A stretch of DNA of 64,000 nt from Podarcis cretensis (lineage: Eukaryota), in NCBI GenBank assembly GCA_951804945.1, contig OX638149.1, positions 90,520,001-90,584,000 on the forward strand. The letters run 5' to 3'. Every line of letters starts with the position of its first letter. Within the stretch, counting starts at the first letter, position 1. Under the pieces are notes generated by a model. That model made no database searches. It was given only the letters and a program-made list of their open reading frames with translations, and was not told where the DNA came from. Shown in pieces: positions 13,074 to 57,635 of the stretch. The position numbers and the translations under genes are program-made.

Positions 13074-13241
13074 CAGTGGCGTAGCGTGGGTTGTCAGCAC
13101 CCGGGGTAAGGCAAGTAATTTGCGCCCCCTAACCCGTGGATTTGTGCCCCCTAACCCGTGGATTTGCGCCCCCTAACCCTAACCCCCAGATGTTGCGCCT
13201 GGTGCGGCCGGCCCCCCCTGCACCCCCACGCTACGCCACTG
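13074..13241. mobile_element. Young hAT MITE
   Basis: Perfect TIR CAGTGGCGTAGCGTGGG, perfect 8-bp TSD CATGCTCA (13066-13073, 13242-13249). Confidence 0.9.
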
Positions 13242-27806: not shown

Positions 27807-29527
27807 ATTTAAATGTATAGGAACCCTGGAGAGAGCAATTTAGATGGACGCCTTCCATTTTAAGGTTCATTTCTTCCTCATCCTTAGGTTCATAGTGACT
27901 TCAACTCAGATGTCATTTCAACACTACAGTTTTCTCTCTGGGGACATTTTGGAAGGAGTGCTCTCATAATTGAAACAATCTTTTTATTTTGTCCTGTTGC
28001 TCTTTGCATGAGGTCTGCCAGAATGACACCAGTTTATACTTGATAATAAGTTTGAAGCTTGGGAGAAAATGGCGAGATGGTAAAAAGAGCAGGCGGTCCC
28101 TATACAATATTGTACCAACACTATGCACAATGATATGCGCAAGAATTTATTTTTAAAGTTAAAACACCCTGATATATAGTGTAACACCCCCACCCCCAAG
28201 ATATGCAGATAACAGGAGATGAAAAAATTATCAGAGCAGCCAGTAGACTAGGGGCAGCTAGCCTATGGAGCGTATATGCACACCCCACACTGCAAGAGGT
28301 TTGTTTTTGTGCCTGTAAAATTTATTTTTTCAATAATGATAGAAGTTTTCTTTTACTGCTTCTGTGGCTCCCTGCCTTAGGGGTTGGGGAACCCCCAGAA
28401 CAGGTTTAGCGGGCACATGCATGAGTCATTTTGTGCACATATATCCTTCTTAGCATTCCTCTGAATTCCACCCATACATTTTACTTTACTTTTTTATTTT
28501 TTTTGAAAAAACAAACCCACTCCTGAGGGTTCCTGGCTGTGATTTTATGACATCAAAAGGTTTTTGTGATGCTTTCTGGACCACTCAAATATCCTTTTTA
28601 TTTAATTTTAAAATGCCACATTCACTTATACACTTTGACATGTGGCCCTTGGAATGCTGGCCATGGGCCAATGGGGCCCTCAGCCTGAAGAAGGTCAGCC
28701 ATCCCTGCAGTAGACTGTGCAAAAGGCAGGAAAGTCCACCCTAAGAAACTTGTGATGGGATATGAAGGACATGAAAGTAAATACTTCTCAGGAGCTTCTG
28801 ATTTCACCCAAAAACTCCCCCCCAGTGGTTGTTCAGCCCCTATTGGTTTGTGGGGGTAAGTTCTCAACCATCTTACGGTACAACATCATTGGTGGAATGA
28901 TCGCTTCAGACCTTAAGAAAATATTGCTGCATTGTTAAGGCCATGGGTGAAGATACTTTGGAAAGGACTTGCACATTTGGCGGGATGGTGGGTGGGTGCA
29001 CATGGTAGGATCAATATGCCATAGGGTGATACCCTCAGGAGGTAACTCCCATGAAGTTAGAGCAAGGTTTAAAGAAGACACAAACTTATCTTTTGTAGCC
29101 TCACACTATTGATATGTTGATTGATAGCCAGTGGTCCTTGGCTCACTCAGCCACCTGCTGGATTGCTTAGCTTTCTAGTTTTCAACCTCTACCTTTGCCC
29201 TCCATATAACTTTGAGGTAACTTGGTAGATCAATGGTGGCAAGTAGCTTCCAAATGGAAAGCAATGAGCCATTGATCTCTCCTCTTCCTACCTCCTGAAC
29301 ATTCACACAGCACTTAAAAGGATATTTTTCTACTGAAAATGTCCGGCAGACTCCCTCTCTGCCAAGCTAATCAGATGCACACTGAGGGATGGCCCCATAG
29401 GTCCTCTTTGAATAAGTCTCTTCATGGTAACTATGTACATTAGCTCATGCACGGAATCTTCACCTTTCTTTCACATTGGTTGAGCCGTGTTGTAATGGAC
29501 ATCACTTTCGTGTGCCGTCCTCAACAG

Positions 29528-29572
29528 AAAGAAAACTAAACTGTTCTCCAGGCTGAGGAAAAAGATGAGCAG
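29528..29572 (+). CDS. BIN1: BIN1 exon 11 (muscle-specific polybasic PI motif): RKKTKLFSRLRKKMS
   Basis: tcaacag|AAAGAAAACT...GAGCAG|gtacca, 45 nt, symmetric phase 2; homologous to human RKKSKLFSRLRRKKN. Confidence 0.93.
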
Positions 29573-34251: not shown

Positions 34252-37192
34252 ATCTAGGGAACTTGCCAAGGTAGTGCATTAACAGAAAATACACATGGCG
34301 AATGCTGCCATCAGCTGGTGGTTCTTTTTCAATGCATAGTTCAGCTAATCATTGCAGGTTGGTTGTTTCATTTATTATGCTCATACATCAGAGACAGATC
34401 CTAATGGGCATAAAACAGTATTTTTAAACCAGCAGATGGGCACATTAATTTTCCCAGAATATTTTTAAAATGAAATATAAGCATGCAGTAGTAAAGGCAT
34501 TTCAGCAGGAAATCTATAATTCACTAAGAAGCATTCCTGACAAACCCTCTTCCACAGTTCAGTGGTTTATACTTGCAGATAAATGACTAAGTTGGGTGTG
34601 TTGAGGAAGAAGTGACATCTGGAACTTTAATGTGAGTTTTTGAAAGAAGATTTGACAATGTTGACACACTGGAGTTTAGCTAAGCACTAATCAGCTCAGC
34701 AATGAGTTGCTCTTAACCCCACCTCCTCATGCAAACAGCACCAAATATTTTTAAAATGCAATCAGCTTCCTGCTCTATACCTAAGAGTTCTTTTGTGCAT
34801 TATTGTGTAATGAGAGATACAGTATTTTTCTCCTAAAATCAGCATTCTTGTCTGTTGCTAGCTCTCTCGCCTGCCCATGAAATCTTGAGTTGTGCAGGTG
34901 GAAATAAGTTTATATAGAAAGTTATAGGAAGGATCCACCATTAAAACATAAAGCAACATTAGATTTTTTTTTAGAGGCACATAAAAGTAGACGGTGGATG
35001 CGAATAAATGAAAAATACAACCTATTGCCTAACAAAATCAAATTTTAAAAGTTAAAGTGCAAGCCAAAGTACAGACCACAGGGGGGAAGAAATAAGCTAT
35101 GTCCAGATGGTGTGGCAGAATGTAGGGGAAGGTGGAAAATCCACTTCCGTAAAGGGAAACTTCTTGAACTCTAAAGGAACGAGTTGACAGCACTGTCTCA
35201 AAGTTAGATAATCTGCCTGTCACTGCAATAGTGTATGAATAAGAATTGATCACTTGCATGCTGAAGGTGTGTTCTTGTTGGAAATCTAGAATGACTTCAC
35301 TGAACACAGTGCAAAAATATTTTCTTAAGTTCTCCAAATGAATGTAGCAGCATTTGAAGAGGGCATGTGAGGAAACTTAAGCCTATTGGTCTTCTTCTAG
35401 ATGACATGCCCCCTTCTCCAGAACTGTGGAAGACATTGCTCAGCTGCAGCCAAAAGACTGCCCTATTGAGAAGACATGGTTTCCATTTGATTTTTAGATC
35501 CCAGTAGGTGCTGAAAAAGTGCTTGTTAGGTAGTGCGGAGAAAGGCGTAACACTACTTTCCAGAGTTTTAAAAAGCATGAGTAGGGTGTGTGAGAGGGAA
35601 GATTGCAGTGCAGATAAACACCCATGTTGCCTCATGAAATCAGGCAGTGGTCTTTCCCAAGAGTGCTGGGCCCTGGGCATGCCAGTTCTTTCTATACTGA
35701 AAGCCAAAATGTAGGTTGTGTCTGTTGTTGTTAATAATGGATGTGTCCATTTCTAAAAACCCACTAAAAACTTTCTCCCACATCCCCAACCCCCAATTTC
35801 AGAAGCCTAATTTAGATTCCCTTCCACCAGTTATATTTAGTGTGTTGCTATTGTTAAAGCAATTAGGAGCATTACATTAGTCTTGACATTCTGCTGCCAT
35901 TTGCTTGGAGATCTTCTAGTTGATCTGAAATTACCTTCTGCATGTGCTGGAATTTCTGCAGCTTTTGATTATCAGCCAGCTGATAAACATATGTATGAAA
36001 TGGCAGCACCATCTTGTGCATTAAATGTAGGTCTGCAGTTAAAAGAGTTACACCCAGAGATAAGCCACTGTGTTACAAGAAACACTAAAAAGCAAAGTGT
36101 GTGAATCACGTTATTTTTGTGAATCTGTTATTTTTGGCACTTTTGTGACCTGTGAAACTAGCCAGATTGACTGTTGAAGACCCCAGTATGTAGTTTAGCT
36201 TGCTCATGCTTAATTGTCTTCAACAGTTTGGAAAACTAGATCTTTTCTGCTAGGCAGGGGCAGCATGACAAGTGTTTTGCACAATATTTTCACTGGGAAG
36301 CATTTTTTGAATGTTCAAGTAGCACAACACAATTGAAAACCAACCTACTGCTCTGATATTGCACCTAGAAATGAGACGCATTTCAGCTAATTTAGGTTTC
36401 TTAGTATGTTTGGTTGAAAGCATGACACCAAGTGAGCATCTGAGAAAGGAGAAGGAAGAGAAGAAAATCTTGACGTAACCAATCCAGATGGTACGGCCCC
36501 CAAGTGTGGCCTATGATGTTAAAGAAAAATAAGAGCCGCAATGTAACTTGTCGTAGGAGAATATGGATTCCCAGACCAGCATAATTTTTACTCTTGTGAC
36601 ATTTGTGGTTATTTCACAGGAATGCTGTGACTCCAAAAAGAATTGGACCCTGATTTCTTTTGGTTTGTATCTCAGCCATATTTAGGATGCCTTTGTGACG
36701 CTGAACCAAGGTCACTTATAAAGAATGGGTTTAATATATTGGGAAGCCTGTTTTTAGGAATCAGTAAAGCTGGCTTGGGTATCTTCTTTCTCTGTAGGCA
36801 GACAGGTACTGCTGCCACGAGTAATGCTGCTGTCTCTCCTGGCTCCTCAGCGCTCTTTTTTCGTAGTATGTAAACTCCCTCCTTGTCCTCCAGAAGGTTG
36901 CACAGACTCTAATTATGTATGCATGACCTATCTTATGCATATTAATTGTGTTACGCTTCTCCTCTGCAGAAGGGAGACCTGCCCACGACTGAAGTGTAAC
37001 TAATGATGCGAAGCCTTCTTTTGGAAGTGTGTGATTGTTTCTCCTTCCTCCCATGTGTGGACAACCCCCCTAGACCTCCTTCCTCTCTAGTTGTGTGTGT
37101 GTTTTGTATTTAGTTTTTGCTAACCTGGTTCCTGTCTCTGGTTTTTTGGGTGTTGCTGTCTGTGCCGTCGCCATGTGTTCGCTTGCATGCAG

Positions 37193-37321
37193 TTGCGGAA
37201 AGGTCCTCCCGTGCCGCCACCTCCAAAACTCACTCCATCCAAGGAGATGAAGCAGGAGAACATCATCAACCTGTTTGATGACAATTTTGTCCCAGAGATC
37301 AGTGTGACAACCCCCTCACAG
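37193..37321 (+). CDS. BIN1: BIN1 exon 13 (CLAP): [43 protein letters not shown]
   Basis: gcatgcag|TTGCGG...TCACAG|gttagc, 129 nt; carries the class I SH3 ligand and an FxDxF AP-2 motif. Confidence 0.96.
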
Positions 37322-38595
37322 GTTAGCTTCTCCTTCTTCCCTGCCCTCCCTTGTCCCTTCCTCTATCCGCTTCACCTTCACCTAATTTTTTTTTTTTTTT
37401 TGGTCCTTTCCTTATTAGAGGTGTCAGGCCATGAAAACTGCTCAGTGCATGAATGTATGGGGGGCCCAATGTGATTTGAACTGGGCAAAAGGGCCAGTGA
37501 GTTTTCCCACCACATATTATTGGCTCAGAAACTGTGTCTGAGGTAGATGGAGGCAGAATACGTGGAGAGGTTCCATTATTTTCCAATGTCTTTCATCAAG
37601 GCCATGGAGATCAAACCTATTTCTCCCCAGCTAAATAGGAGAGTGAGGCAGGAAGGCATTATTGTTTCAGGACATTGTGTACACACACCCCCATCCCCAC
37701 CCACACACCCTCATGTGAAGTGGTCCCAGTTCTGCAGCCAAGTGGAGGAAATGAGGTTTGGATCAAGGGCATCCATCCCCACCCTTTAGAACAAGCTTTT
37801 CTCCTGAGGCCCACATTCCTTTCTGGGGAGCTTTTTTGGGGGGGGCCTGGGCAAAAGTGGATGGCGCACAGAATCTAGGGTAAAGTTTAGAAGCTCTGCC
37901 CACATAATTTTTCTTAGAGTGAGGAGGAATTGTCTGGATGGGGCCCCCTTCATAACTGGGTGCTAGCATGGTCACCCTGGCTCGTACCTTACATCCCCTC
38001 ACATGGTTGGGGGATTAAGAATTGTGAGATTCTTAAATATATGAATGTGGGCTATGCCTCACAGTGGTAACTTGAAACACCTGTGTGGTTTTAGCTGCCT
38101 CCAAGAAAGAAGTGCTTTCTTTTCTTATTGATAAGAGTCTGAGAGACAGATGGGTTTTGTGTTAGTGACTTTGGATGCTTTCATGCATCAACCCTAGACA
38201 GGTCATTCTTGGCCCTGGGCCTGCCCTTAATATTTTTTAAAGTCACTAGCATCTGCCACCTCTTCAGAGTCTCATGGCCTCTCAAGCTACTATTGTAAAG
38301 CTTGAGAAACTGATTGAAAACAAAGTATTCTATTGTAGCTAATTGCCTGAGGTAGTGACTAGGCAAATGGATGATATCCACCACATTGTCCCTTCCCGGG
38401 GATGATTTAATTCTAGCCCTTGTGATGGAAGAAGGAAGAAACAACAGCCTGACCAGTTTTCTGGCTACATTCTCACAACTTGCATCATCATCATCAACAA
38501 CAACATTGTGATGTATAATTTTTTTCCATTATTCATAAAAAATGACACCTCTAGCAGTTCTGTTTCCTGATTCCGCTCTTCCTTCCCTACCTCAG

Positions 38596-38676
38596 TGCGG
38601 TGGCCTGCGGCTTTTACCTCTTCCTCCTGTTCGACGGCCGAAACATTGCGTGAGGGGCCTGGAGTTGGGAGAAAAG
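38596..38676 (+). CDS. Candidate extra in-frame cassette exon of BIN1 (CGGLRLLPLPPVRRPKHCVRGLELGEK)
   Basis: Long pyrimidine tract + cag acceptor, AAG|gcaagt GC donor, 81 nt phase 0-0, no stop; no transcript evidence. Confidence 0.4.
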
Positions 38677-41664
38677 GCAAGTGTAGGCCACAAGTTACAA
38701 GGGTTGTGGGATTACCTCACAGTTGTGGGGATACAGGTCATAGTTCTACAACAGATTAGGATTCCTTATTGAGGGTGGGGAGCAAAGGAAGATATTAAGA
38801 TGCCACTTAGCTAGCTTTAAACCTGATTTTTTAAAAAAAATAAATTAAAAAAAAGTAGGTCTTTGTCATTACCAGAAACATTTATTGGAATGTTCTGAAA
38901 CAAATTAACACAGAAATGAGCACCAAGTGTGGATTTCTGTCTGGCCATTTAGTAGCAACCATGGGCCAGTTATGGGCCAGTTCTAGCAGAACAGGGTGTG
39001 GAGCTCTTTGGAAATGATGGGAGTTGGAGTCCAAAACATCTGGAGGACTTCTGGTTCCTCACCCCTGCAAGGGTGGAAACAAAAATCAACAGATCACAAT
39101 ATCTCTCCATCAGGACTTGATTTTAATAGGTAAGGGGGATGTTTATGTGTGGAAACCTCTTGAGAGATGACCAAAGGGAAGGTTCAGAAGTAAAGGAACT
39201 ACAAAGGAAAAAAGAGGACCCTGTAGGGGGAATAAAAGGCTTGTAGTACAAAATAAAAGAGGTTGTTGGGAGTAGTGTGTGGGAGCAGTGATTTGTTTAC
39301 ATTTGAGAGAGAGAAGTAAATGAGCCTGTCTAGGATATCTTAGACTAAGGGACTTTTGGAAGAATGCCTGTGGGAAAACACCTGTAGAAAAATGTTATGT
39401 GGAAATGCAAAATCAATGATGAGCACAAGGTAGAATTAGTCTCACCATGAGGTACTGCAAGATTATTGTTTCATGTGGCAGGTTCTGAACAGCATTAGAG
39501 GCTATCCAAATTATTCTTAATTTAGTATAATTTTAATGAGGTGGGAGAATGGAATTTGAAGCAGAAAAATCTTAAATGCGCTGCTAGCCATGCAAAAAGG
39601 ATCTCACCACCTGTTAGTGGCACTTTTCTTTCTTTCTCAAAATCCTGATATGTAGGCGGTGTGGTTTTAAAGAGGTTAATCGTCGGTAACATGCAATAGG
39701 CCGAATTTATAGCTTCAGTGAAACGTACCAACAAGCATTGCCTTTTCTTTTTGATTTTTCTTCCTAAAGACAAGAGCTCAGAGATAGCAGTGGATACCAT
39801 GGGGAGCTAAGAAGGGAGAGCAGAGGCTTTGCATTAATGGGAAAGCAGAGACTAAAAGTGAGAAGAGTTGCACTTTGTAGAGTCTTTTGGTCAAGGGAAC
39901 CAAGGGGCTGCCTTCAGTGTAGGAATTCTGCCTGTATATCCCCCGTTCATTTTGTTATCTGAGAAAGCCGTGGGCCACTGAGCAACCTCCCATCCTTGTC
40001 CACACCTATCTTTTCCTTGTAGCATGCCTCAACAACTCTTACACCATGTTTTATATCATACGTTTCTGTGTAAAAACACTTGCCTAAACAGAGCATTCAG
40101 CTTGGGACGCATCCAGTGTGGAGGACACCTGGCATGTACAGGTTTCAAATGGATGGGTTTGAGTCCTAGATCAGAAACCATAGGGAAAAACCTATGATCA
40201 ATGTATTTCATGTACTATATGTGATTTTTTTCTGTGTGTGTGTTGGGCTAATTATTTGGGAGGAGAGGGATGGCAAACTAACAAGAAAGAGGAACCCTCG
40301 GCACATGGTGCAGGTAACTCTGGGGTGTCAGGTAAGCTTCTAGCATGGCTGTACCCTTTTGACCTGAATTGTTTTTTAGTCAAGCACAGAAAATGAATAC
40401 CTAGAAGGTCTTGCTTCAGTGGTAACCTACATAAGAAATACTTAGGTGATCTGCTGTGAGTATTGTGTAACCTTTTAAAATCTAAATCTATTGGAGTTGA
40501 GATTATGAGGCAGAAAACCGCCTTCATTGAAAGCTTGTTCTGATATTGGTAGGAACTAGTGAATGACACAAAAAAAGTTAAAGTTGAAATATAAACTGCT
40601 GCTGCTTGGAAACTGTGTGGAAAAGAATGTGCTGGAAGTTTCTCTCTTGAAAGTATGTGGATATATCAAACTGATAAAGGGTTTTGCTTGGAAACAGCAG
40701 CAATTTAGTTTTCCTCAGTTGGTGCATTTACGTTAGTTTTCACCAGATATTCTAATAATTCAGAAATGTTTACTGCTGTGCCTTGGTTTGGTTCAGAAAG
40801 GTTATATTGCATTACTTTGCCTTAGGACCAGAAGAACTATCAAAGAAGTTGCTGAAATATCTGGACAGAGCTCCTTTCAGAAACAGCAAGTTGGGAAAAA
40901 AGGGGTGCCTTGTAAATCATCTTTTTAGGAATATGGACATTAGTCAAAATTTGAATGCTGCCACTGATGTTCTAATTTGCAACCCCAATAGAATTGCTTC
41001 TAGTTAATAAGATAACCTCCTGACTAAAAAGGGACCTTTTGGCTAGATATATAACTTGAAATGTATATAATAATAGAGAACTGGAATAATTTATTAATAT
41101 TGGAAATAACGTCCGAATATGGAAAGCATTAGAATATGGGCAGGGGAAACAGATTGCAAAAGCTAAGATCTTAAACAAGGAATCTACTGTGTTTCTGACT
41201 ATGATGATACAGATTTGCTGCTGTGAGGCTCATAGAGAGGCTTCCACTGAAAATGCTTTGCACATCATACATAGTTTCCTTCTTTTAAGAAGTGCCTAAA
41301 GTAGTGGCCTAGCTGTGCTGAAAGTTGCATGTGCAAGTATCTTGGGTAGGATTTAGGGACCCTGTCTGGAAAGATCACAGGTGATGGTGACCTCAAGAAG
41401 ATCCCTGATAAATAAGATGCATGGTAACACGAAAACTGCTCAGGCTCTGTGGAATACTGATGCTTTGTTTTCACGGCTGCGTTTCTGCAAAAGTGTTGAG
41501 CGTATTGTGGCCACTGGACACATGTGAGCATTCATTGCTTGTACCATAGAGTTGTATGCATCTTTTTTTGCACCTTCAGCTCCTGGGTAACATCTTCTGC
41601 ATACCAGCCTGCACCCTATACCTGACTAATACGCAATACTGCTTTTCTTCCTTAATGCTGCAAG

Positions 41665-41775
41665 TTTGATGCCCCTGGGCCCTTCCAGGAGGGAGCCAGC
41701 CTGTTGGATTTTGATTTTGATCCCATTAAACCTGATAACAGCCCTGTAGGGAAGTCGCCTACGCCTGCTGCCCAG
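41665..41775 (+). CDS. BIN1: BIN1 exon 14 (CLAP): [37 protein letters not shown]
   Basis: gctgcaag|TTTGAT...GCCCAG|gttggt, 111 nt; clathrin box LLDFD. Confidence 0.93.
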
Positions 41776-43079
41776 GTTGGTTTACTGCTGCCATTCTTTC
41801 ATGAAATGTTAGACAATATAGACCTCATCAGTCATGATGAGGATGGGTGTGTATGTATGTATTCATAGCAACAGAAGTACATGTGGAGATTTACAAAATG
41901 TATCTACAGAGTCTCACATGACTCTTCCTGATGGTTTGCATTAATAACCGTAGCTTATGCTTTTTAGGTGTTTCATATACACTAACTTGGTAATTCTTAG
42001 AATAATCTTGTAGAGCAGCCCAGTGTTGTTTATACTACACTGCTGATCAGGGAGCTGAGACTTGAAGAGATTGACTTGCCTAAGACCATCTAGGAGTCCA
42101 TGACTGAGTTGAGATTTGAACCACAGATTTCCTGCAATCAGTTATGAGTCAACCTTGGTAGGCTTCTCGTTGCCTTGTAGCCATTATTATTATTATTTCG
42201 ACTGGGAAAGTAATCTGTGGATTCTGTACACATAATACATAATATCCAGTAGGTAACTGCATTCTGCAGCTGAGTTTCTCCTTCAGGTACCTAGCATATC
42301 AGAAGTCTGCTCCACAGAACTTTCAGTGTGGCTGCTCCTCTTCTACTTTCTAAAAAAACAACTGAATACATTTTTTGTTTTGATGAATTTTTCCAGCTGG
42401 ATGTAAAAAGGTCTCCTTTCGTATTGTTTTTAAACCAATCTGCACCTGGAGTTTTGTAGTGTTCTAAAACTAATTTTTAGCTGTTTTATGGTATATTTGT
42501 AAATTGCCTTGAGTTGCATGCAAAAGGTAATTAATTAATTTAATCAATGGCTCTCCTACAGCACATTATCTGCTGAGCCTGTTTAGCTTCACAGGAATCC
42601 ACCCTCATCTGGCAGATGCAGAAATTGTGACGTAGTGAGATGAAAATTGGCCATCTCGTGCAGTGTAAATTAGTAGCAGCTAGATTAAAGAACATGAGGG
42701 ATGAAATGGATAATTCAAAATATCACACAATAAGCTTGCATTAATGTCAATGAATGGTATATTATTAAATGTGGTATCCAGTGCTGGACCTGAGCGGGAG
42801 GCAGTTTATGGTGTGTTACTCTCCTCTTCGAATCCCTTCCAGAGTAGGGATTTTTGTGTGTTTCAGCATGTGTGTATGTTACTGATAGTATAGGAGGCTC
42901 CTACAGGGAGAGCAAGGGTAATTGAAAATTGCCTCCCTCTCTCTTCCACTGATGGATATCTTTGTTGGAGGAATCCTCTGAGTGGTACAAGGAGACTTTG
43001 TATGTTTGCACTTTCTGTGTTGGCTGAATTAATGATGTCTCAATGTGTTTTTATTCCTGTTGCTCTTTGCTATGCTTAG

Positions 43080-43103
43080 TCTTTGCCTTGGGATTTATGG
43101 GAG
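43080..43103 (+). CDS. BIN1: BIN1 exon 15 microexon (clathrin W-box): SLPWDLWE
   Basis: tgcttag|TCTTTGCCTTGGGATTTATGGGAG|gtaaga, 24 nt. Confidence 0.93.
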
Positions 43104-45412
43104 GTAAGATTTCTATTGATATAGCTTTCAGTGCAATAAATTCTACCATGTGGTGCTTGGCATGTGTGAGTACTTCCTTCTGTCATTGTCATGCAAAGAT
43201 GATTATTCTTGTCTTGACCTTCTGTTCTCATCCTCTTCAGTGCTATGAACTAAAGTGGTGTGGTACAGTTGCAACCTCTTCTGCCCTTTGTCTGTCATGC
43301 TGAGAAGAAGTCTCCAGCCCCTGTGCTTTGATATTGCCTATTATTGATGGCATTGACTGAAGCACAAACCTTCTTGCTGCAATAATTGTAGACCTTGCTG
43401 CTACTTTTTACCTTGTCAAACCCCTGCATGCCATTTCCTACCTCTCGATTGTGTAGTATGCATACTTCTCAACTACCACCAAACAATTCCTTATTCTATA
43501 CATATATTTAGTATAATGCTGTGCTTGCTGATTTGCTGCCGTGGTTCACTAATAACATAGATTGGAGATCTCTGCAGTACTGCTGGAGAAATGAACCTTT
43601 CCTTCTTTCTTATTATGCTGCCAGATATTACGCTGTAATAAATCAGTTTAAAAAGCCAATGGCTTGTAGTTTCCAGACTTTCTTCATAACATTTTGGGCA
43701 TGTTGAGATATATAGCTTTGCTTGAGTCCACCTGCTAGCAAGTAACCTTTATTCTTTGCTTTTGTGCATTTCCTGATGTCTTTATTAATTCTATATCTTC
43801 ACAGGAGGATACTTCTTACTTTCTAAGTTAAAATTTAAGTTTACTCATTTGGCTTACTTTATCTGCCATCAGATGTCTTTTGAGGTGTGATTGGCCTTTA
43901 AAAAGAATTGGCCTACACTGGTTTCCCATTGTAAATTCATCAAATTGTCTCAAGAAGTTGACTCCCTTGTCTTTCCTGACCCAAGAACCTTCACTATTAC
44001 TTCTTCCTAAGCATTTTCTCTGCTGTTTTCCCTCCCTTTCCTCCTCATGTAAAGGTTTAGTGAATAGATTGTGTCCTCAGGATAGGTAGCCGTTAGATTT
44101 AGATCAACCACCCCAGAAAAATGGTGCGCTGGGGAAACAAGCACCATATTTATTCAAACAAATGTGTATGAATCTCCCCACCTTCCATTATTTTCCATTA
44201 TTTTCCATTATTTTCCTTCAATGAATATATATATTCATTGAAAATATAAATTATCACACAGCAGGGTTTAACTGCACCAAAACATATAGCAGTCCAGTGA
44301 GTAAAGAATTGCTAGCTCAACCACCAAATTATCTGATTTAAATCTAAACATCATTGAGTACTGTATTACCAAAACTTCAGTGCAAGGGAAGTGCAAGTTG
44401 ACTCATTTCATTCTGTATGAAAGCAACACAGAGAAGCTAGACAGCCCCCCAAATAAAGAAGTATGACAAGTCTCACCTTAGTTAAAATTACTCAACAGAA
44501 GTTCTGGCTGCTGATTCAGTAGCTTGCCACCCTAGTTAAAAAGCTTATGAAGCCCGACAGAAGGCATTGTTGTTCAAAATGTATTGTCAGTAAAGCCAAC
44601 CATTAAAGGCAGGAAGTGAGAAAAAGCATTGTAAGCTACTTGTGTGGGGTACTGTGGCCTGGCACCTTTCTGTGCAGTTGAGAGCAGCCCGATCAGATGA
44701 GAGGTTGCAGTGGACTACCCGTGTAGCTGTGCCTGAGCAACTGTGGTTGTTGAATGGAAAGCCAGTGTGCTGTGGCCTCTCTTGCCCAGTCATAGTGTAT
44801 GTACAACTACTCCAGAAAAATGGTGCAATTTGGAAACAAGCACCATATTTCTTCAAACAAATGTGATCTATATTTTCCTAGCTTTACTTGTGGTATAGGA
44901 TGTTAAATGCCTACCCTAAAGTAGATAGAGATTACGAACCACCAATGTATTGCTTCTCTCTGAACTGCAACCTTTAACCGAAGACATCTTCTGCTGTTAT
45001 TTGCTCTGCTTGCTTTTGTAATATTCTTATGTCATGCTGACGGCGTGCTTCTGTAGTTATTGCTGAAACCATTATTGGCTGAACAATTCATTAATTTCAG
45101 ATTCAAAATATAGACGTTTTTAAGTGGAACGGTTTTCCATGAAAGGTCATGTAATCCATGCTGATATTATCACTGTATGTAGTTTGCTTCTTGTCTATCT
45201 AGCAGTGTTTTGTTGCTAGTTAAGCATTTACCTAAAAACAAATACATTTAGTGGTCGTTCCTTCTTTAAACCCCTGCTCCCACCCTCTGCCAGCAATGGT
45301 TATTCTTTAATATATTTTTTTAAGGACTTAATCACCTTCCCCCCAGGATCCATCCAAAATTATGGCACATTTGACTCTTACCTGTTCAACAGTTCTATTT
45401 ACCCTGGGATTA

Positions 45413-45633
45413 CTGTATTTTTCGCTCTATAAGACGCACCCAACCACAAGACGCACCTAGTCTTTGGAGGAGGAAAACAAGAAAAAAAATTCTGTGCAGT
45501 GAAAGCAGCAATCCTTCTTGCTGTTCTTGCTTCTGTGATAGCTGCACAGCCTGCATTCACTCCGTAAGACGCACACACATTTCCCCTTACTTTTTAGGAG
45601 GGAAAAGTGAGTCTTATAGAGCAAAAAATATGG
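45413..45633. mobile_element. Tc2/pogo-type MITE related to 14949-15421
   Basis: TA|CTGTATTTTTCGCTCTATAAGACGCAC...GTGAGTCTTATAGAGCAAAAAATATGG|TA; the empty site is visible in the paralogous copy near 48995. Confidence 0.88.
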
Positions 45634-45765
45634 TATTTCATTGTCGACTCTGTCTTACTTCTCACTGCACTCTTCTCATTTTTGTATCTTCATGTAACCA
45701 TGCCTACGACTATCTCCTCCCATCTCTGTTTCTCTCTCCTCCCTCCTACAAATTCCACCCATCAG

Positions 45766-45885
45766 CCGGAAAAGACTCCATCTAGCAGCGTTCAATCTAT
45801 GGATCAGTTTCCGGCCGATAATCCTAGCAATAGTGCGTTCGAGGTGGACTGGCCTGACCAGCCCACTGAGACTAAGATCAGCCAA
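45766..45885 (+). CDS. BIN1: BIN1 exon 16, copy A: PEKTPSSSVQSMDQFPADNPSNSAFEVDWPDQPTETKISQ
   Basis: ccatcag|CCGGAA...AGCCAA|gtaagt, 120 nt, phase 0-0; AFEVDWPDQ aligns with human TFAVSWPSQ. Confidence 0.8.
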
Positions 45886-46399
45886 GTAAGTGAAAGTATT
45901 TGAAGTGATCATACATTTGAAATTGTCTTGTTCTGGCTGGTGTGCTCTAGCACAAGCCTGATTCATTTGTTATTCTTTGGAATGCATTAGGCCGGGGCAA
46001 ATTTATGGCCTCTTGCACCCAGCACTCTTCCAAAGGAATTAGAATTTACCCATTCCCTAGGCACAATAGTAAAGCACATCTCCTTAACCGTTTATCTGGA
46101 CTGGGGGGAAACTGATGTGGTCTAGTGACTAAAAGTAATAGCTTGGCACGGAAATTCTAGAATTATTTTATCACTGTTTTTAGGGATTGGTGAGCAGCCG
46201 TGTACCCATAATAGAGATGCATTGCATCCCTTGAGTTTTTGAAGCTGAATGTTCAGAAAACATTGGAGGAGGGTTCTCTGAGTGTTCAACTTAATATTTG
46301 AAGGGTTTGATGCCAGCCCACCTCTGCCCGTTTCCTTCTCTCCCAAGGAAAAGGACTAACTGTGGGGAAGTCCGAATGGGTATCAGGTGGTGAGAGAGT

Positions 46400-47528
46400 G
46401 CTGTAGAGAAACACTCTTTTATTTTCTTTTGGAATATTTACTGCTAAACTGCCTAATAAAAATGCTTCCAGTTTCTTTACAAATGTATGTTTTAGCATTT
46501 TTTTGAGTTCCTCGTAAATCATGTCCCAATTTTTTTTAATTTGGTGACAAGTCTGCCACTTGTGGAAAAAGGTTCCTACGGTTTGTTTACACCTCCAACA
46601 CTTGTTACTATTGTTTTTATTAATTTTAGCTAATTTGGATGGGGTCAGGTACCATCTGTAGGTCATTTTCATAAAGTATTCTTTAATCAGATAGCACACT
46701 ATAAATTTTAAATCTTTTTTTTCATAATTCTTCCCATTTTTCCATTTCAATTGGGTAGCCGAAATGAGCCCACTTCACCATCACTTCCTTTACTTTTCCA
46801 TCTTACAAATAATAATCTATATGTTTTTGATAATGTCTTCCTATTTTTTAATATTAATTCTTTTTCTAGGTCTTACATCTTTGTATGAAATCCATTTGTT
46901 TTTTAATCTAATTTAAAGATTTCATTTAGGTGGTACTATTGTAGCCAGTTCATCCCTGTCTGTTTAAGTTCTTCATATCCTTTAAGTTTTAATTGGTTAT
47001 TTTCTTCTTCTAATATTTCTTTATAGGTGAGCCAATTAATTTCCATGTTTTTCTTTTTCACTGCTATTGCCTCTACTGGAGACAACCATCAAGGGTTTTT
47101 TGGGTTCCAATAGTTTATTTCTCCCCCATACTGTAAAAAGTGATCTCCTTATTATATGGTTAAAGAATCCTCTGTGCATTTTGACTTTGTCATATCCAAG
47201 ATAACCATGCCAGCCGAACCTATTGTCCCGGCCTTCAATGTCTAATATATTGGCATTTTTAGTAGTATCCATTCTTTGAGCCATACTAAGCATGCAGCCT
47301 CTTAATATAATTTAAGGTCTGGCAGTGTGAACCCTCCTCTGTCTTTTACTCCCATTAACAGTTTAAACATAATCCTTGGCTTTTTGCCCTGCCATATAAA
47401 TCTAGCCAGGTCTAGGGGCAACTTCGCCTTCTGTTGCATCCCTTTCTCTTTCGTCTTGCTGCTCGTCTGTCTCAAGATGGCAGCAGCACAAACTACGACC
47501 CGACACTGAGCGTGCTAGTCTGGAAGTC
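46400..47528 (-). mobile_element. L1/Tx1-clade LINE remnant (decayed ORF2 C-terminal part plus probable 5' end)
   Basis: Minus strand LARFIWQGKKPRI...RGGFTLPDLKLY*EAACLVWLKEW and YRWYLTPSKL...CWRCKQTVGTFFHKWQTC (zinc-binding region); stops and frameshifts present. Confidence 0.85.
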
Positions 47529-49126
47529 TTTCTAGCAGTGTTTTGTTGTTAGTTAAGCATTTGCCTTTGTTAAATATTCTCAAAGCCATTGAGAGAGGGT
47601 ATTCTGTAGATCCAGCTCTATGTTTTGCACAACAGCAAAACAAGCTACCTTGGATGGGATTGTGTAACCCACCCACACCAAAAGACAATTCAATGAGACC
47701 TTGATGCGCATGGTGCTGAGGGTGTGTATAGGGAATGAATATTCAAATGCACACCTGCACCAGTTGTTCACACAGATGTTTACTCTACAAGTTGATTTCC
47801 CATGCTATTTCCTCCTGAAGAGAGCCGGGGTTGTGGATTGTGATACATATTGTAACATCAAAGACCCATATACTGGTGGGATGGGAAAGCTATTTTAGAA
47901 TCAAACAGCCTGATATAAATGTAACTGATGCAGATATGGGCTGCCATAAATCAGAGAATCAGCTTTGCATGCAGCAGGTCTCAGTTTTCAATTCCCAGCA
48001 TCTCCAGCTAGAGCAGGAAGAGACTGCTGTCTGAAACCCAGTCAGGGTAGACAATGGTGAGCTAGATGGCTTCCTATATTCTGATATTTCCCCCAGAAGG
48101 TGTTTGATCCAAAGACACAAAGAAGAGATAGGGGTTTTAATATTTATAATACAACTTTTGCAACAAAATAAGCTATACAGTTAGAGTCCAAATAAAAGGA
48201 AATGAATATTTTATGACATAAAATAAATTACCCCAAATGTTATAAAATAAGATAAACCAAAATATCAGATAAGCTTGTTAAGTCCATACTCAAATTCACC
48301 TCACAGTTTCAGGCTTTAATTTAGCTCACTATAGATCATATATCTATATCTATATACAGTATCTACATATCTGTCTGTAGCTTAAAAACAAATACATTTA
48401 GTGGTCTTTCCTTCTTTAAACCCTTGCTCCCACCCTCTGCCAGCAATGGTTATTCCTTTTATATATATTTTTAAAGGACATAATCACTTCCTTCTGTGTT
48501 ATGGAATTAAATCTACTGAGATGCTAAATTCAGTGACAAAATTCAAAATGTGGCCCCATTCCAATCTTCTGCAGCAGAGAAGGTGTCACTGAGACAGCTC
48601 AGCACTGCCTTTATGGATTTGGCAGTGCATAGAAGAAGTGAGGGAGAAAGCAAGAGGTACTTAATGATGTAGGAGGGATTTTTTAGAAATATCCAGGGAT
48701 GCCTTGACAAGGCTAAACCAGGACAGCATCCTCTGAGAACGGTGCTGCCTGATGCTTGACACTGGCAGTCTTCCAGGGCAGTTCTACTTGCACTGCCTGT
48801 ATCCATGGAAGCTCCATCTGCACCCTAACAATCCACTGCATCCCAAGGTGAACTACCCTGGCCAATAAATGGAGGCACTTTTGTCAGACCATTGGCTGCA
48901 GGGGTAATGTTTACCCCACCTTCCCCCCAGGATCCATCCAAAATTATGGCGCATTTGACTCTTACCTGTTCAACAGTTCTATTTACTCTGGGATTATTTC
49001 GTTGTCTACTCTGTCTTACTTCTCACTGCACTCTTCTCATTTTTGTATCTTCATGTAACCATGCCTACGACTATCTCCTCCCATCTCTGTTTCTCTCTCC
49101 TCCCTCCTTCAAATTCCGCCCATCAG

Positions 49127-49246
49127 CCAGAAAAGACTCCATCTAGCAGCGGTCAATATATGGATCAGTTTCCGGCCGATAATCCTAGCAATAGTGCGTT
49201 CGAGGTGGACTGGCCTGACCAGCCCACTGAGACTAAGATCAGCCAA
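49127..49246 (+). CDS. BIN1: BIN1 exon 16, copy B: PEKTPSSSGQYMDQFPADNPSNSAFEVDWPDQPTETKISQ
   Basis: ccatcag|CCAGAA...AGCCAA|gtaagt, 120 nt; 3 substitutions versus copy A. Confidence 0.8.
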
Positions 49247-50099
49247 GTAAGTGAAAGTATTTGAAGTGATCATACATTTGAAATTGTCTTGTTCTGGCTG
49301 GTGTGCTCTAGCACAAGCCTGACTCAGTTGTTATTCTTTGGAATGCATTAGGCCGGGGCAAATTTATGACCTCTTGCACCCAGCACTCTTCCAAAGGAAT
49401 TAGAATTTACCCATTCCCTATGCACGATAGTAAAGCAGGGTATAAATAATAAATAATAAATAATAAATTATTATTATTATTATTAATGAGAAGGGGCAGG
49501 CAGGCAGAGACTACAACCTCCCTTCCATCCAAACAAACAAAGGCTTACCCACTGCCTACCTACCACTCTGATAATTGTCTTTTCTTTGTGTTTTCAATGT
49601 AGGGAAGTTTTTTTAATATTTGATGCTTTGATGTGTTTTAATAGTCTGTTGGGAGCTGCCTAGTCAGATGGGCAGCATATAAATAATAGAATTATTATTA
49701 AGTTCATCAATTCCTAATTTGTTCAAGGGAGATTTTGCTGTTAGAAGTGTCAAATAAAGCAAGGGTTGCTATGTCCTGCTGCATGTGGGATGGGAGTGAG
49801 GGGGAGAATTTTACCTAGGCATTGTTTATCCTGCATTGCTTAGTTTCCCTGTTGTCAGAATGCATACTGGTTCCTTGTGTGTGGCTTTGTTTCAGTGGAG
49901 TGTGGCCCACAATTATTTATACCAAGTGTGGAATATGTGTGTATTCTTTGGTATGATTCTCCTGAAGTCATTGGAATAAGCTGGTGTGCTTTTAGTGAGA
50001 TTTCGTTTTCTGCACACTGACAATAATGTTTTTGCAAAATTGGAGCATTTATCACTTAGCAAGTTTCATTCCTCCCCTACAAGGAAAAAAGACTGCATT

Positions 50100-50535
50100 T
50101 TCTGGGGCTTGGTAGTCTAGAAAAAAGAAAATTAATGGGGAACATTTTGCAAGGTGTGGAGAAGCAGGATAGAGAGTACTGTGTGTACTCCCTCATCATA
50201 CTTGTGAGTACTCCCTCATCATACTTGGGATCACTTGACAATGTTGATGGGCAGAAGCCTTGGGACAGGTGGAGAATTATTAATACAAATTATTATTATT
50301 AAATACTTATTCATACAATACACCATTAATTTGAGAAACCAATCAAGACTAGTCCTTGATTGTTATATGAAACCTCCAGGTTTAAAGATAGGATATCTCT
50401 GAATATTAGCTACTGGGGAGCAACATTGGGAGGGGGCTAGGACCTGAATATACCGGTAGGTTTCCCATATTGGCTAATGGGAAACAGGATGCCTGACATG
50501 ATGGACTACTGGTCAGATCCAGCAAGGGTCTTCAT
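50100..50535 (+). mobile_element. Degenerate CR1-like LINE 3' fragment
   Basis: gggcttggtagtctagaaaaaagaa (LGLxSLEKR motif) and a retroposon-like tail. Confidence 0.5.
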
Positions 50536-51744
50536 ATGGAAGCTAAACAAAAATAGTTGCAGTTTCAATGTAAAATAATAGTGATTGCTAAAAGGGTTTT
50601 GGAATTCCCTTTTAATAGACTCTCTCAGTCTTGTGCATCAGAGCATATCTATCCTGCATCATGTTGCCTTTAGGTAGCATGTGGCTTTGTAAGAGCACTT
50701 ACACAGTGCCTGTATCTTCTTTGCTCCTATATATTCTAGTTCAATATATAGGCAGTTCAGTTAGCTTTGTGCCACTTCCATTGTAGTGTTTCAACAAGAA
50801 GACTCTATAATGACTTCTCTGAAGAGGCCTATTAGGAATAGTGCCATCTTGGACAATGGCTAGTCAAGTTGTTTAGTGCAGAGATCCGTACTGGAAACCT
50901 TTTGAGAGCAACACTTGGATGTGATTTTACTTATCCTATATTGGCAATATGTAAGTTTCAATCAATGGTGGCAAGTGGCATATGCTCTTAAAGCCCTTGT
51001 AGACTAAAAGGAAATGTGACGTGTGTTCATTCATACACTGGGAGGCAGAATGGGCAGCTTTAATGATGTGCATAATATTCCTTTCTACCTGTGCCACTGC
51101 CATTTCCCTCATACTCCACTATGTAGATAAATAATATACATTTGGGTCAGCATGAAAATGACAAGCCCAGAAGAAAGCCTTATCTATTTCATTAATGGGC
51201 AGTGGTATTGTTATTATTATTATTACTATTATTATTATTATTATTCTGCTAAAAAAGAATAATCATTATTGTTTATACCCCCATCGATTTGCATATTTTA
51301 TTCTTCTGAAGAAAAGAAATGTTGGTAGCATCAACAAAGATTTCCCTGATCTTATCAGTTTCCCCAGAGATGTGGGGAAGGGGGCAGCCATGGTGTGGCT
51401 GCCCAAAGTCATGGGGAAAAAGGAGGAAGGAAAAAATGTACTTCAGTTGCAAAGCTTCTGTTCATAGATGAAAGGGGGGGAAAGGCAGGAAGACAGAAAT
51501 ATGATCTGTATATCCACCATCCTTCAAGGCAATCGTTTTTTGAAACTTCATGTAAATGCATTGAAAACTGCACTTCTATCTTTAACAAATGAATGCAAAT
51601 GGTAGGAGAGAAGCCAAAAATCACTTTAAATAGCATTTTGGAACTGTTCACCTCAGTAGGTGAACCTTTCAGCATGTCAGGTCCTCTGTTCCATAGGCTC
51701 CATTATCAATCTTTTTTTGTTTTAATCTCTGATAAATGTTTCTT

Positions 51745-52058
51745 AGCTTGCATTCACACGGCAGTTTATTTTGTTTTCCTGACATTTCCCTAACATAAAT
51801 TTCTGCCTTATATTCCAGCTTTCACACAACGTTAAAGACACTTCCAGAAACAGAGTGGAATGTAGCTTGAGTTTAGTGCTCATTTCTGCGTTATTTGCAA
51901 ATGGTTTTCTTCTTCTTCTAGAAATGAGTGCTAAACTTGTGTTATAGTCTGCTTTATTTCTGGAAACGGTTTTAATGTCACCTGAAAGTTAAAATATATG
52001 GCAGAAATCAACTAGGAAACACAGGGAAAATATAATAAACTGCTGTGTGAATGCAGCC
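51745..52058. mobile_element. Old fold-back MITE, PIF/Harbinger-like
   Basis: tgcattcacacggcagtttatt / taaactgctgtgtgaatgca and agtttagtgctcatttct / agaaatgagtgctaaact arms; TTA-like flanks. Confidence 0.65.
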
Positions 52059-52802
52059 TTACTGTAAGATTGAGATGCATGTAATCCTATTGATTAACTG
52101 CTGAGAGGTAGGAAATTGGATGGGTTCTTACTAGTCTCTTCTTCAGTGGCCAGGTGGTGGCAGTCTTTGATAACATTGATTCTCACTATATGCTGCTAAC
52201 TCTGCACAGCCTTATGTGGTATAACTGATCGGCAGGGTGTATGCCATCTTCATATCTGATCTGATGGTCTATTATTTTAACTGCTGCTGACTTAGAACGG
52301 TGAACTTGGTGACCAGTTGACCCTGGTCCAAAAGGCAGCTTCTGTTGTTCTGTTGTCATAAGGGTCTGCTGTTATTAGGAAGCGCACTGCCAGATTTCAT
52401 CAGACTTTCCTTTCCAAGTCCTGCAACCAGGAATTTTCTCAGCCACGTTCAAACGTTTTACTCAAGGTGAAGTGCGTCAGTTTTTGAAGCTATGCAACTG
52501 TATGAAGAGATACAGCAGTTTTTCGCAGCCATAAAAGAAACAGTAGAAACTATGCAATTATGCGGAAGCTAGAACCTTCTGGGCACACTGTTGGCTTATT
52601 TGGCAAAAGACAGGGTCAGCACTGGAAAACTTGAGAACATGAGGTTGTTTTCAAATGTGAGGTTTTTAAATAGGTCTTGCTTCAAGCTGCTTTGTAATGC
52701 AAATTCAAAACCTTTATTAGCTGGATCATTTTCATAACCCAAGCTGCGCTTCAAAACCCCCAAACATACACCCCCAAATGAAGATATACAGGATTTTAGT
52801 TT

Positions 52803-53620
52803 AAGTTATTGGCAAAATTTAGGCCACAACTTTATTAAATACAGAATGTGAGTGGTACTGGCTTAGGCATTGGATTCACCCGACTATATCAGACTCCCAT
52901 CTGCTTCACAGGGAATCTGATAAAAGGGTGAAACACGGCCAGAGGGAGCCCCGCCAGTGAGGACCGACTTGAGCTCCCCCGGTGTCTCCGTGGGGTCCTG
53001 GTATGGCCCTAGCTCCTACCACGGGGTTTCGAACAAGACCCAGGCCAACCACTGATTCCTTTAATGGGATACCCTTAACCTTGGAGGGGCAGGTGATGGC
53101 CACCCCCCTCCCCACATATTACTGATCCAATGCCTAACTGCCAGACTTTACAAAGTTGTGACAATTGCTACGTGGTAGGCAAAAACCAAATGGCCATGCC
53201 AATCTGCCAAATGGAAAAATTCCTACCAGGCCCCTGTTGCAAAACAGGTGACCAACAAAGTCCACAGCAAGGCCAAGTGCACCAAGATAAAGGGCAGCGG
53301 GTGGGCATTCCTCTGCGCGAAGGCAATGAGGACCAGCAAACAACACGCAGGGCATAAATAAAGTTTTGCAACCACCCCCTAAGCCAAGCCATTGGCTTTA
53401 GGGTCCAGGAAACATGCAAAACGACCATAGCCCTGCCCACCCCAGCAGATGGGAGATGCTCGGAGGCCCGATCGCAATGCGTACCCTCCATGAAGAGGAT
53501 CTGATTTAACGCAAATAGTGCAGGAAACCCCTCAAAGGTGCGCCTCCTTTAAATTTGACTCATGAAAAATATCTGAGATGGGTGAGACTGACCCACATAG
53601 CGCAACCACAAAGACTTAAT
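52803..53620 (-). mobile_element. GC-rich interspersed repeat, possibly the terminal part of a DIRS/Ngaro-like or LTR element
   Basis: Abrupt GC/CpG rise; minus-strand AATAAAGTTGTGGCC near the end; family assignment is from memory only. Confidence 0.4.
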
Positions 53621-53909
53621 AAGCAGCCAACTCTATGAGCTCCAGGCTACGTTCCAGCCCAGGGTCATTTACTCTTCCTCAAAGTGGTGCAGCTTGGATC
53701 TGTGCCAGCACATGGACTTGGGATACCCAACTGGTGCCGATACCTGACTGTTTTAAGAGTGTGGGTGCTGCAGTCCAGCTCAGGACTCAGACTCCGCTCA
53801 GCACTGAGCTGCAGATGCTCATAATTCTGGCAAGGCCTAAAGATGTGGCAGGTCATGCTCTCCTGGGCATGCTGGGGTTCCAGGAGTTTAACTGGCTTTT
53901 GTGTTGCAG

Positions 53910-54011
53910 CCCACAGAAGCCGCTCCTGCTGGTGCTGAGGCAGCTGGCAAAGAAGCAGCAGCAGCTGGAGCTGAAGCAGCTAAAACCGAAACTGACTCAG
54001 GATCTGCCTCA
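53910..54011 (+). CDS. BIN1: BIN1 exon 17 (Ala-rich, Myc-binding region): PTEAAPAGAEAAGKEAAAAGAEAAKTETDSGSAS
   Basis: gttgcag|CCCACA...GCCTCA|gtaaga, 102 nt, phase 0-0; position and composition fit. Confidence 0.85.
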
Positions 54012-55022: not shown

Positions 55023-55133
55023 AGCTCTCTGCCTGCTGTAGTTGTGGAGACCTTCCCAGCCACAGTCAATGGAACAGTTGAAAGTGGAGCCGCTTCTGAA
55101 AGGGCTGACATGCCACCAGGTTTCCTTTTTAAG
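55023..55133 (+). CDS. BIN1: BIN1 exon 18: [37 protein letters not shown]
   Basis: tgcttag|AGCTCT...TTTAAG|gtgagt, 111 nt. Confidence 0.96.
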
Positions 55134-55817: not shown

Positions 55818-55919
55818 GCACAAGCCATGCATGACTATGCAGCCACTGACAGTGATGAGCTACAACTGAAGGCTGGAGATGTTGTCCTGGTGATTCCATT
55901 TGACAACCCAGAGGAGCAG
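55818..55919 (+). CDS. BIN1: BIN1 exon 19 (SH3): [34 protein letters not shown]
   Basis: tttgcag|GCACAA...GAGCAG|gtaagg, 102 nt. Confidence 0.97.
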
Positions 55920-57527
55920 GTAAGGAGAGCATGTGGGATTTATCATCTTTTTTTGCTTCACACACCAGTGTCATATAGTATGTAGAACACTGGATCTGAA
56001 CCAGAAAGACTTTGTTTGAAAATCCCGTTTTCCTGTGTGTGTGACCTTAAAGCTGCCAGCAGATGAATGGAGATGATGTCTTGCAAAACCAGAATCTCTG
56101 AAGTAACTGTCTGCTTGATTCTTTGAAATGATTAGTATAGAGCAGGGGTGGCCAACCTGCTGCCCACAAGCCAGCTGAAGCCTACAAAGCTGTGTGAAAG
56201 GCCCTGCTAGCTCCTTACAAAGGCACCTCTTCCTTACTTTTCAAACCTCTCCTCTGGTAGGCTCCAATCAGCACAAAGGGTGAGAAGAGTTATTCTCAGG
56301 GGCTAAATTATGTTGTGATTGGGTGGTTCCTGGGTGCTGGAGAGTGGGACTCTGCCACAAAAATAGTAGTGGGTCTTCAATCCCTCACAACCCTATGTGC
56401 CTCTTGTGTGTCACCATCACTAGCAGATCAGATCACTCTAGAAACTGGAAGCATTCAGTCCTGTTTCCTGAGTGCCTTATGCAAACAATTGACATTTTCT
56501 TATGCAAGGCCTCAATAGCCTTTAGATACTCTTGATGCAAGAGCCACTTTGTACCTCATGAGCGGAAATGACCAAGATGTAATCATATTCAGTTTTTCAC
56601 AATAACAGCTTCCTAGGAGATGCCATAGTGTTGAGAGAGAGAGAGAGTTTTATTTTGTTCATAGACAAGCTCTCTTCCTAAAGTGATAACGTATTAGGAA
56701 TATCTCTTCTTAGCAAATAGCACCTTTAAAAATGTCTTCTCTTCTCTATTGTAGTTAGCTCCTAAGTGACTTTAGAGCAGGAGTGGGGAACTAGATTTAG
56801 GCAGCAGGCTGGATCCCTAATTCCCCCATCCTCTGTGGGTCAACGTTGACAGGTGGGCAGGACCTTACATGTGCAGCTAACTACCTTCATCTTCAGATAA
56901 GGCTTGAATTTGTCAAATGCAAATTTCAAGACAGGCAAAAAACCAAAATCAATGGAGCTTAGGAAAGATAATAGGCCATATTAAGCTCTGCTGTTCTGCT
57001 CACGCAACAGACTTCTGCTTGAACACTCTTTGTACATCATTGAATCTACTCCAGAGAATTGTGGGAACCTCCAGAGCAGATTTTGGGTGCTCCTAGAGGG
57101 AAGAGGAAGTCCTATTGCATAAACGGAACTCTGCTTGCACAGCATTGGATACAACCCAGTGTATCCAGAAACAATAACAGAATCTTACAGCGCCCTAAAG
57201 ACTAGCAAATGTACTGTGCTGTTACCTCTCATGACCTAGAGTTCACTTCTTCAGAAGCATGGAGTGTTGTCCTCAGCTGACAGGTATATATACCCATGAG
57301 GAGGAAAATGTGCAAAGTTCAATGAAAGCTCAAGTGTATGCAAAAGCAGCACAGTGATTCTTCAAAACCACAATAATAGATGATAACAAACTTATCACCA
57401 ATAAATAACTGATTGCCTTATTTGCACAAGGTTGTGATCAGTGACCTAAGAATCCTAGGCTGCCCTCCTGCTTGTTTTTCACTCTGTACAAACCTTTTGT
57501 CTGCCTTTCCCTTTCTCTCCCTGGCAG

Positions 57528-57635
57528 GATGAAGGATGGCTGATGGGTGTGAAAGAATCCGATTGGCTTCAGCACAAAGAACTTGACCAATGCCGAGGAG
57601 TTTTCCCAGAGAATTTCACGGAGCGGGTGCAGTGA
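57528..57635 (+). CDS. BIN1: BIN1 exon 20 coding part (SH3): [35 protein letters not shown]
   Basis: ctggcag|GATGAA...CAGTGA, stop TGA at 57633-57635. Confidence 0.97.

Follow-up and report, generated by a model that had tools for sequence, protein, structure and literature searches.

A squamate cassette exon of BIN1 with a GC donor and a proline-rich motif that may engage the SH3 domain of the same protein

Exon X in the BIN1 locus

The stretch considered here comprises 64,000 nucleotides (nt) of Podarcis cretensis contig OX638149.1 (positions 90,520,001 to 90,584,000 of the forward strand); it is called the window below, and all positions are counted from its first letter. Its + strand carries the gene BIN1 from exon 4 through the stop codon, and the exons and sequence elements located below lie on this strand. 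The exon peptides are identical or nearly identical to those of Lacerta, Podarcis and Zootoca records, which marks the animal as a lacertid lizard, and the exons are numbered after the human scheme. In the intron between exon 13 (37193..37321), which carries a known proline-rich motif and is located by sequence and RNA junctions, and exon 14 (41665..41775) lies a cassette exon of 81 nt (38596..38676), here termed exon X, which is evident from the sequence and from squamate protein records. Its boundaries are in phase 0, as are those of exons 13, 14, 15, both copies of exon 16, and exon 17, and it is translated without a stop codon into the 27 residues CGGLRLLPLPPVRRPKHCVRGLELGEK.

On the acceptor side, a pyrimidine tract begins at 38560; the polypyrimidine tract with its acceptor CAG is assigned to 38571..38595, with the AG at 38594-38595, and a candidate branch point, found as a pattern match, is CTGATT at 38567..38572, the A of which (38570) lies 26 nt upstream of X. 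The 5' splice site is of the GC type, AAG/GCAAGT, with its intronic part at 38677..38682. In a simple and rough home-made scoring of splice sites the acceptor reaches 7.9, which is among the best values in the window, and the sum for acceptor and donor (16.6) is the highest among the 36 window candidates listed, above those of the true constitutive exons. X also contains six CpG dinucleotides, a number that is reached in 2 of 611 intronic windows of 81 nt. An earlier sequence-only reading of this DNA had described the pyrimidine tract, the 81-nt segment, the GC donor and a stop-free frame in phase with exons 13 and 14, and each of these could be confirmed. Its statement that CpGs are retained in an AT-rich intron is correct for the CpGs, but intron 13 has a GC content of 42% and is thus only mildly AT-rich. 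The X stretch has a single match in the genome (1.5 Gb), both as DNA and as protein. An origin from a repeat or a duplicated exon was rejected because of this one genomic match and the lack of any other in the window, though an old decayed element is possible, and an antisense gene at X seems improbable, the minus-strand frames being broken by nearby stops.

The donor sequence by itself is not rare, since the motif MAGGCAAGT occurs three times in the window. The same 9-mer, AAGgcaagt, is found at ATM exon 50, a documented human GC donor with a MaxEntScan (MES) value of 3.24 that is weak as a GC site and otherwise ideal (PMC11545216), whereas the donor of X serves a lineage-restricted coding cassette. 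Support for conservation of the GC comes from a protein model of Gekko kuhli (P0008), which reads through the end of X into the intron and continues with Ala-Ser. As a GT donor would have given Val at this point, the GC donor appears to be conserved in the gecko, which implies, as far as a protein record can tell, that the donor of X is old. Of the first 15 read-through residues, nine are identical to the frame of the window intron, so that the intron flank behind X seems to be conserved, too. A Phrynosoma model (P0023) was considered as a second case of read-through and was set aside, since the end of the intron that precedes exon 14 explains its additional residues just as well. It had been expected that predictors restricted to GT donors would easily miss this exon; the gecko model is an example of this, but many RefSeq isoforms already include X.

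The conserved flank (38683..38782) is rich in UGG and G, with TTGTGGG at 38704-38710 and 38723-38729, and was delimited by the count of UGG-type 5-mers and the identity with the gecko read-through. It contains eight such 5-mers per 100 nt, and eight are reached in 2 of 526 windows; the enrichment test was devised after the sequence had been seen. The flank probably serves to enhance splicing at the weak GC donor. The intron after exon 17 (54018-54117) has 11 UGG-type words per 100 nt, so X and exon 17 might share a regulator. Such a flank would suit hnRNP F/H or other factors as well as it suits ESRP proteins. The latter are described to act in a position-dependent manner via UGG-rich motifs (PMC5282733). 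A literature search for regulation of BIN1 by ESRP proteins found no supporting paper among those it listed, and we regard an ESRP-type control of X through this flank only as a lead.

Occurrence in squamates and transcript context

The decisive support for X being an exon is its conservation. A peptide search with X and its flanks matched 25 of 50 candidates, each of them a squamate BIN1 protein with X directly after the end of exon 13. Altogether, X follows exon 13 exactly in 67 of 159 BIN1 records that have an exon-13 end, in 18 distinct versions and from 33 named squamate species; as the manner of collecting these records favoured those with X, the fraction is not an inclusion rate. The X-bearing groups are geckos, lacertids, an amphisbaenian, a cordylid, anguimorphs, iguanians, a boa and advanced snakes. 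The length of 27 codons and the frame are the same in all 67 records, as had been expected for other reptiles if the exon were genuine. The window version shares 81-93% identity with the snake, gecko, iguanian, varanid and cordylid versions, a range comparable to that of other alternative exons (10, 12, 16 and 17). Three full-length snake UniRef entries (P0116, P0119 and P0120) contain the order 13+X+17. Judging from the taxon label, the Hypsiglena entry likely derives from a venom-gland transcriptome whose reference-guided contigs had to be covered 5x by reads across the coding sequence (PMC4289226), and the venom gland is thus a likely tissue of inclusion. We consider X almost certainly a real exon of BIN1, and it is already present in public automated annotation, so that it is not an undiscovered sequence.

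Outside squamates, X could not be detected in annotated proteins. When the exon-13 tail together with X was searched against 1383 near-length proteins, 46 passed an E-value of 1e-3, all of them squamate and scoring 72-85 bits, with no intermediate scores; about 23 bits are due to the tail by itself. No bird, turtle, crocodilian, amphibian or mammal record was among the matches. In simulations, a version of X at 60% identity behind a tail of mammalian type was detectable, 76 of 100 versions passed at 50%, and behind an identical tail 97 of 100 did so at 40%, which sets the detection limit at about 40-60% identity. The taxa listed are those of the passing candidates, but exon 13 alone matches 2484 proteins. 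An exon-13 end could be recognised in 17 of 149 further BIN1 and amphiphysin representatives, and X came next in none of them. A sturgeon record (P0026) with additional sequence after exon 13 was rejected as a homologue, since that sequence is unrelated to X. X therefore looks squamate-specific among annotated proteins, a scope that is one of proteins and not of the genomic DNA of tuatara, turtle, crocodilian, bird or mammal, and in the protein comparison it falls outside the pan-vertebrate BIN1 exon set. The assertion that it is absent from the mammalian exon set agrees with this, as no mammal was among the annotated-protein matches. The proposed search of squamate, bird, turtle and amphibian BIN1, run here on proteins, was positive for the first group and negative for the other three. 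A literature search found no paper on X, although most subscription papers lay outside its coverage, and passages of PMC10770608 deal with other BIN1 exons.

The sequence-only reading placed X between exons 13 and 14. It indeed follows exon 13 directly, but the next exon is usually exon 17 (53910..54011, located by sequence and RNA junctions), which follows in 53 of the 67 records; exon 14 follows in six, exon 16 in six, and two models are mis-joined. In the 92 of 159 records without X, exon 13 is joined to exon 14 in 41, to exon 17 in 28, to exon 16 in 13 and to exon 18 in 10. With exon 17 as its usual partner, X would mainly belong to isoforms of the 13+17 type and not to those with the neuronal clathrin/AP-2 exons 14-16. 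RNA reads from four runs were aligned to the region 36900-55300, the run labelled X21 being read to about 12%. The joint 13->17 occurs in X21 (four raw reads) and X6, the joint 17->18 was also observed, and X1 provided 13->14, 14->15, 15->16 and 16b->17. The junctions 13->17 and 13->14 show that X is skipped in lacertid RNA. A search of sequencing runs found the X stretch in 18 runs from 6 studies, with no RNA run among those listed, and is given no weight here.

Several other features of the locus were recorded. Exon 15 lies at 43080..43103, and exon 16 is present in two copies (45766..45885 and 49127..49246) within a tandem duplication of 443 nt (45634-46076 and 48995-49437) that is 97% identical; within the exon the copies differ by three bases, two of which change residues. 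Both copies are present in Lacerta, Podarcis and Zootoca models, the duplication was seen only in lacertid records, and the joints 15->16 and 16b->17 of run X1 bear on it. A high-copy repeat at about 45400-45640, related to 14700-15580 and very deeply covered in all four RNA runs, probably represents a short interspersed element. Six A>G differences at 51799-51860, in the intron before exon 17, occur in one contig of run X18 and could reflect A-to-I editing or an allele. In a Hemicordylus model, exon 11 starts ten residues further upstream, and these are similar to the end of the intron in the window (29490-29530); an alternative acceptor is possible there. Finally, a second AAG/GCAAGT donor ends a frame-shifting candidate exon of 34 nt (13077-13110) that lies about 520 nt upstream of the SRIAK exon and has a weak acceptor; it is probably due to chance, a poison exon being possible.

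The proline-rich core and the SH3 domain

The most conserved part of X is the core LRLLPLPPVRR (38605..38637), in which a class II SH3 ligand (PxxPxR, here PLPPVR) overlaps a class I pattern (RxxPxxP, here RLLPLPP). In the alignment of the 18 versions, 16 of the 27 columns are invariant, and these are distributed unequally, with 10 of 11 in the core (LRLxPLPPVRR) and 6 of 16 elsewhere. PLPPVR is found in all 18 versions, conforms to the class II definition PxxPx[RK] and is the only class II match that a motif scan detected in the BIN1 linker. Of the basic residues past the core, the second Arg is invariant, and position 16 is Lys or Arg in 17 of 18 versions. The class II ligand with trailing basic residues that had been read from the sequence is thus well founded, but the core is equally a class I ligand, which makes other SH3 domains candidates as well. 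By inspection, the X peptide contains no clathrin box, W-box or DPF/FxDxF motif.

Human BIN1 SH3 has been reported to bind class 2 motifs "nearly uniquely" (PMC11245310). Among the rows of Supplementary file 2 of that study that matched our search terms are three human PxxPVRR 15-mers measured with wild-type BIN1 SH3, with pKd values of 5.06 (PRR12), 4.59 (APBB1IP) and 3.75 (TBC1D10B), which correspond to about 9-180 uM; X shares PxxPVRR exactly with these three binders. Tau also binds BIN1 SH3 through PTPPTR and downstream basic residues (PMC6246682). Tau, p140Cap (PPPPPRR), APBB1IP and PRR12 thus resemble X in combining PxxPxR with further basic residues, but these ligands act in trans, whereas X is encoded within BIN1 itself. 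We consider it likely that the X peptide binds the BIN1 SH3 domain.

Most of this SH3 domain, the proposed target in cis, is encoded by exons 19 (55818-55919) and 20 (57528-57635), which together span 55818..57635. Counted by eye, the lizard and human domains differ at about 11 of 77 positions (about 86% identity), and the lizard domain retains the acidic stretch PEEQDEGW. In Zootoca, Elgaria and Rhineura models exon 19 is longer by three residues (VRR or VGR), which separate PEEQ from DEGW within the acidic loop that binds ligands. In the window (55920-55934), the sequence after the corresponding 9-nt extension GTAAGGAGA is GCATGT, which makes a poor GC donor; if genuine, the extension would give splicing a second means of switching SH3 binding. 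A structure prediction of the monomer based on 126 sequences gave confident BAR and SH3 domains and a linker mostly below 50 in predicted local distance difference test (pLDDT) score, with X as a coil within this unstructured part; about 77 residues separate X from the SH3 domain that follows. A first fold from 27 near-identical sequences had a mean pLDDT of 40 and was discarded.

A precedent for binding in cis exists within BIN1. In neuronal BIN1 a closed SH3-CLAP state has been described, in which the SH3 domain lies on its own linker (PMC6246682, PMC12510028), and the motif of exon 13 (also 12A) in that system is, like the one in X, a spliced basic proline-rich motif in the same linker, placed for the protein's own SH3 domain (PDB 1MV3 construct; PMC6246682). 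In that construct X would insert exactly between the end of exon 13 and exon 17. The two exons differ in that exon 13 of the lizard protein shows class I patterns only, while X brings a class II match and a GC donor, and in that exon 13 occurs across vertebrates (PMC9527923), whereas X was found only in squamates. Exon 11, a phosphoinositide-binding muscle exon that is also a short basic linker cassette, is reported to bind SH3 in cis (PMC12510028), but it lacks prolines, has a much higher charge density and bears no sequence likeness to X. The CLAP exons 14-15, which bind clathrin and AP-2, have motifs that are absent from X, and X is rarely joined to exon 14. The closest mammalian counterpart is BIN1+13+17, the main cardiac form in mice and the form of T-tubules (PMC9527923), which has the same backbone as the commonest context of X but lacks X. 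T-tubules were not found in the hearts of snakes and monitor lizards, according to work cited in the same paper.

From these comparisons a mechanism may be proposed. With X, the flexible linker behind exon 13 gains a proline-rich motif of basic character, and the weak GC donor together with the conserved UGG/G-rich flank could make its inclusion tunable. In an isoform with the order 13+X+17, the motif of class II, the type preferred by BIN1 SH3, would act as a second latch beside that of exon 13 and would probably be the stronger one. The SH3 domain would then be less accessible to dynamin-2 and other partners, and BIN1 with X would recruit scission less and favour plain tubulation for as long as the latch is not displaced by a partner. 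We assign a probability of about 0.5 to such an autoinhibition in cis being the main role of X.

A number of observations weigh against this assignment. A class II match does not guarantee binding, as 176 of 448 motif peptides were bound, and a CASKIN2 peptide with PLPLPPAR, which lacks the second Arg, did not bind to three SH3 variants (both PMC11245310, the latter in Supplementary file 2). The monomer model has no confident docking of X, the block of which has a mean pLDDT of 45. Within X, LRL at the N-terminal side is invariant and creates the class I register, and an SH3 ligand does not account for the C-terminal GLxLGEK, which is likewise invariant. The X-bearing records are mostly automated RefSeq models, in which isoform counts are not expression levels, and X was not seen in the representatives of seven squamates (Tiliqua, Euleptes, Salvator, Erythrolamprus, Liasis, Sphaerodactylus and Lerista). 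In the RNA data, none of the 15 joints listed, of 40, leads into X or away from it, and the raw reads of run X21, in the part read, gave zero depth over X beside the four reads that join 13 to 17.

As alternative to a latch in cis, X could be real and its motif could dock SH3 domains of other proteins in trans, which would make BIN1 13+X a new scaffold, either for a Src-family kinase via the class I register or for an endocytic adaptor via the class II register. One core can be read both ways, RxLPxxP is the Src-type consensus, and all 18 versions keep the class I register's Arg and Leu unchanged. The human PPVRR peptides mentioned above moreover bind the AMPH and ARHGEF7 SH3 domains as well (PMC11245310, Supplementary file 2). 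However, an SH3 domain that prefers class II is tethered in the same chain about 77 residues away and would be expected to compete at high local concentration, so we regard docking in trans as possible but clearly the less probable role.

A membrane-targeting module, in which a basic patch and a palmitoylatable conserved Cys would act akin to the polybasic exon 11, is unlikely. X has a net charge of +4 over its 27 residues, Cys18 is present in 17 of 18 versions with basic residues on both sides, and palmitoylated cysteines have basic flanks, but one gecko has Tyr in place of Cys18, the basic positions 15-20 are variable while the proline core is invariant, and exon 11 is far more basic (+8 over 15 residues) and unlike X in sequence. 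Slightly less probable still is that X is included at a low level and conserved mainly for splicing elements in its RNA, with the peptide as a tolerated spacer. The missing inclusion junctions and the conserved downstream intron, which indicates that DNA constraint reaches past the coding part, would fit this, but length and frame are fixed in 67 of 67 records, the invariance is concentrated in the SH3-type core, and full-length snake UniRef entries carry X. That X is a pseudo-exon made of chance intronic splice signals, as the recurrence of its donor motif in the window might suggest, is close to refuted by the records of 33 species, in which X is joined exactly and in frame to exon 13 on one side and to exons 14, 16 or 17 on the other.

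Meaning for squamate BIN1

The availability of the SH3 domain, as set by splicing, governs BIN1 in endocytosis and T-tubule formation and matters in centronuclear myopathy and Alzheimer risk. A more far-reaching version of the cis latch, which we consider unlikely as a whole, would hold that X dates from early squamates, acts as a high-affinity SH3 plug of the preferred class, and is switched on in epithelia by ESRP-type proteins via the UGG-rich flank. If this were true, squamates would possess a natural, tissue-switched "SH3-off" BIN1 in which tubulation is uncoupled from dynamin-2 fission, and X would be a ready-made competitor peptide for the interactions of BIN1 with dynamin-2 and with Tau.

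The mammalian BIN1 model is unchanged by X, and the presence of X in automated annotation lessens the surprise. The pair of isoforms 13+17 and 13+X+17 offers a simple test of how a latch in cis affects tubulation and dynamin recruitment. Should the preferred reading of X as such a latch hold, the class II ligand retained across the squamate radiation would represent an established autoinhibition that was rewired by a new, lineage-restricted exon.

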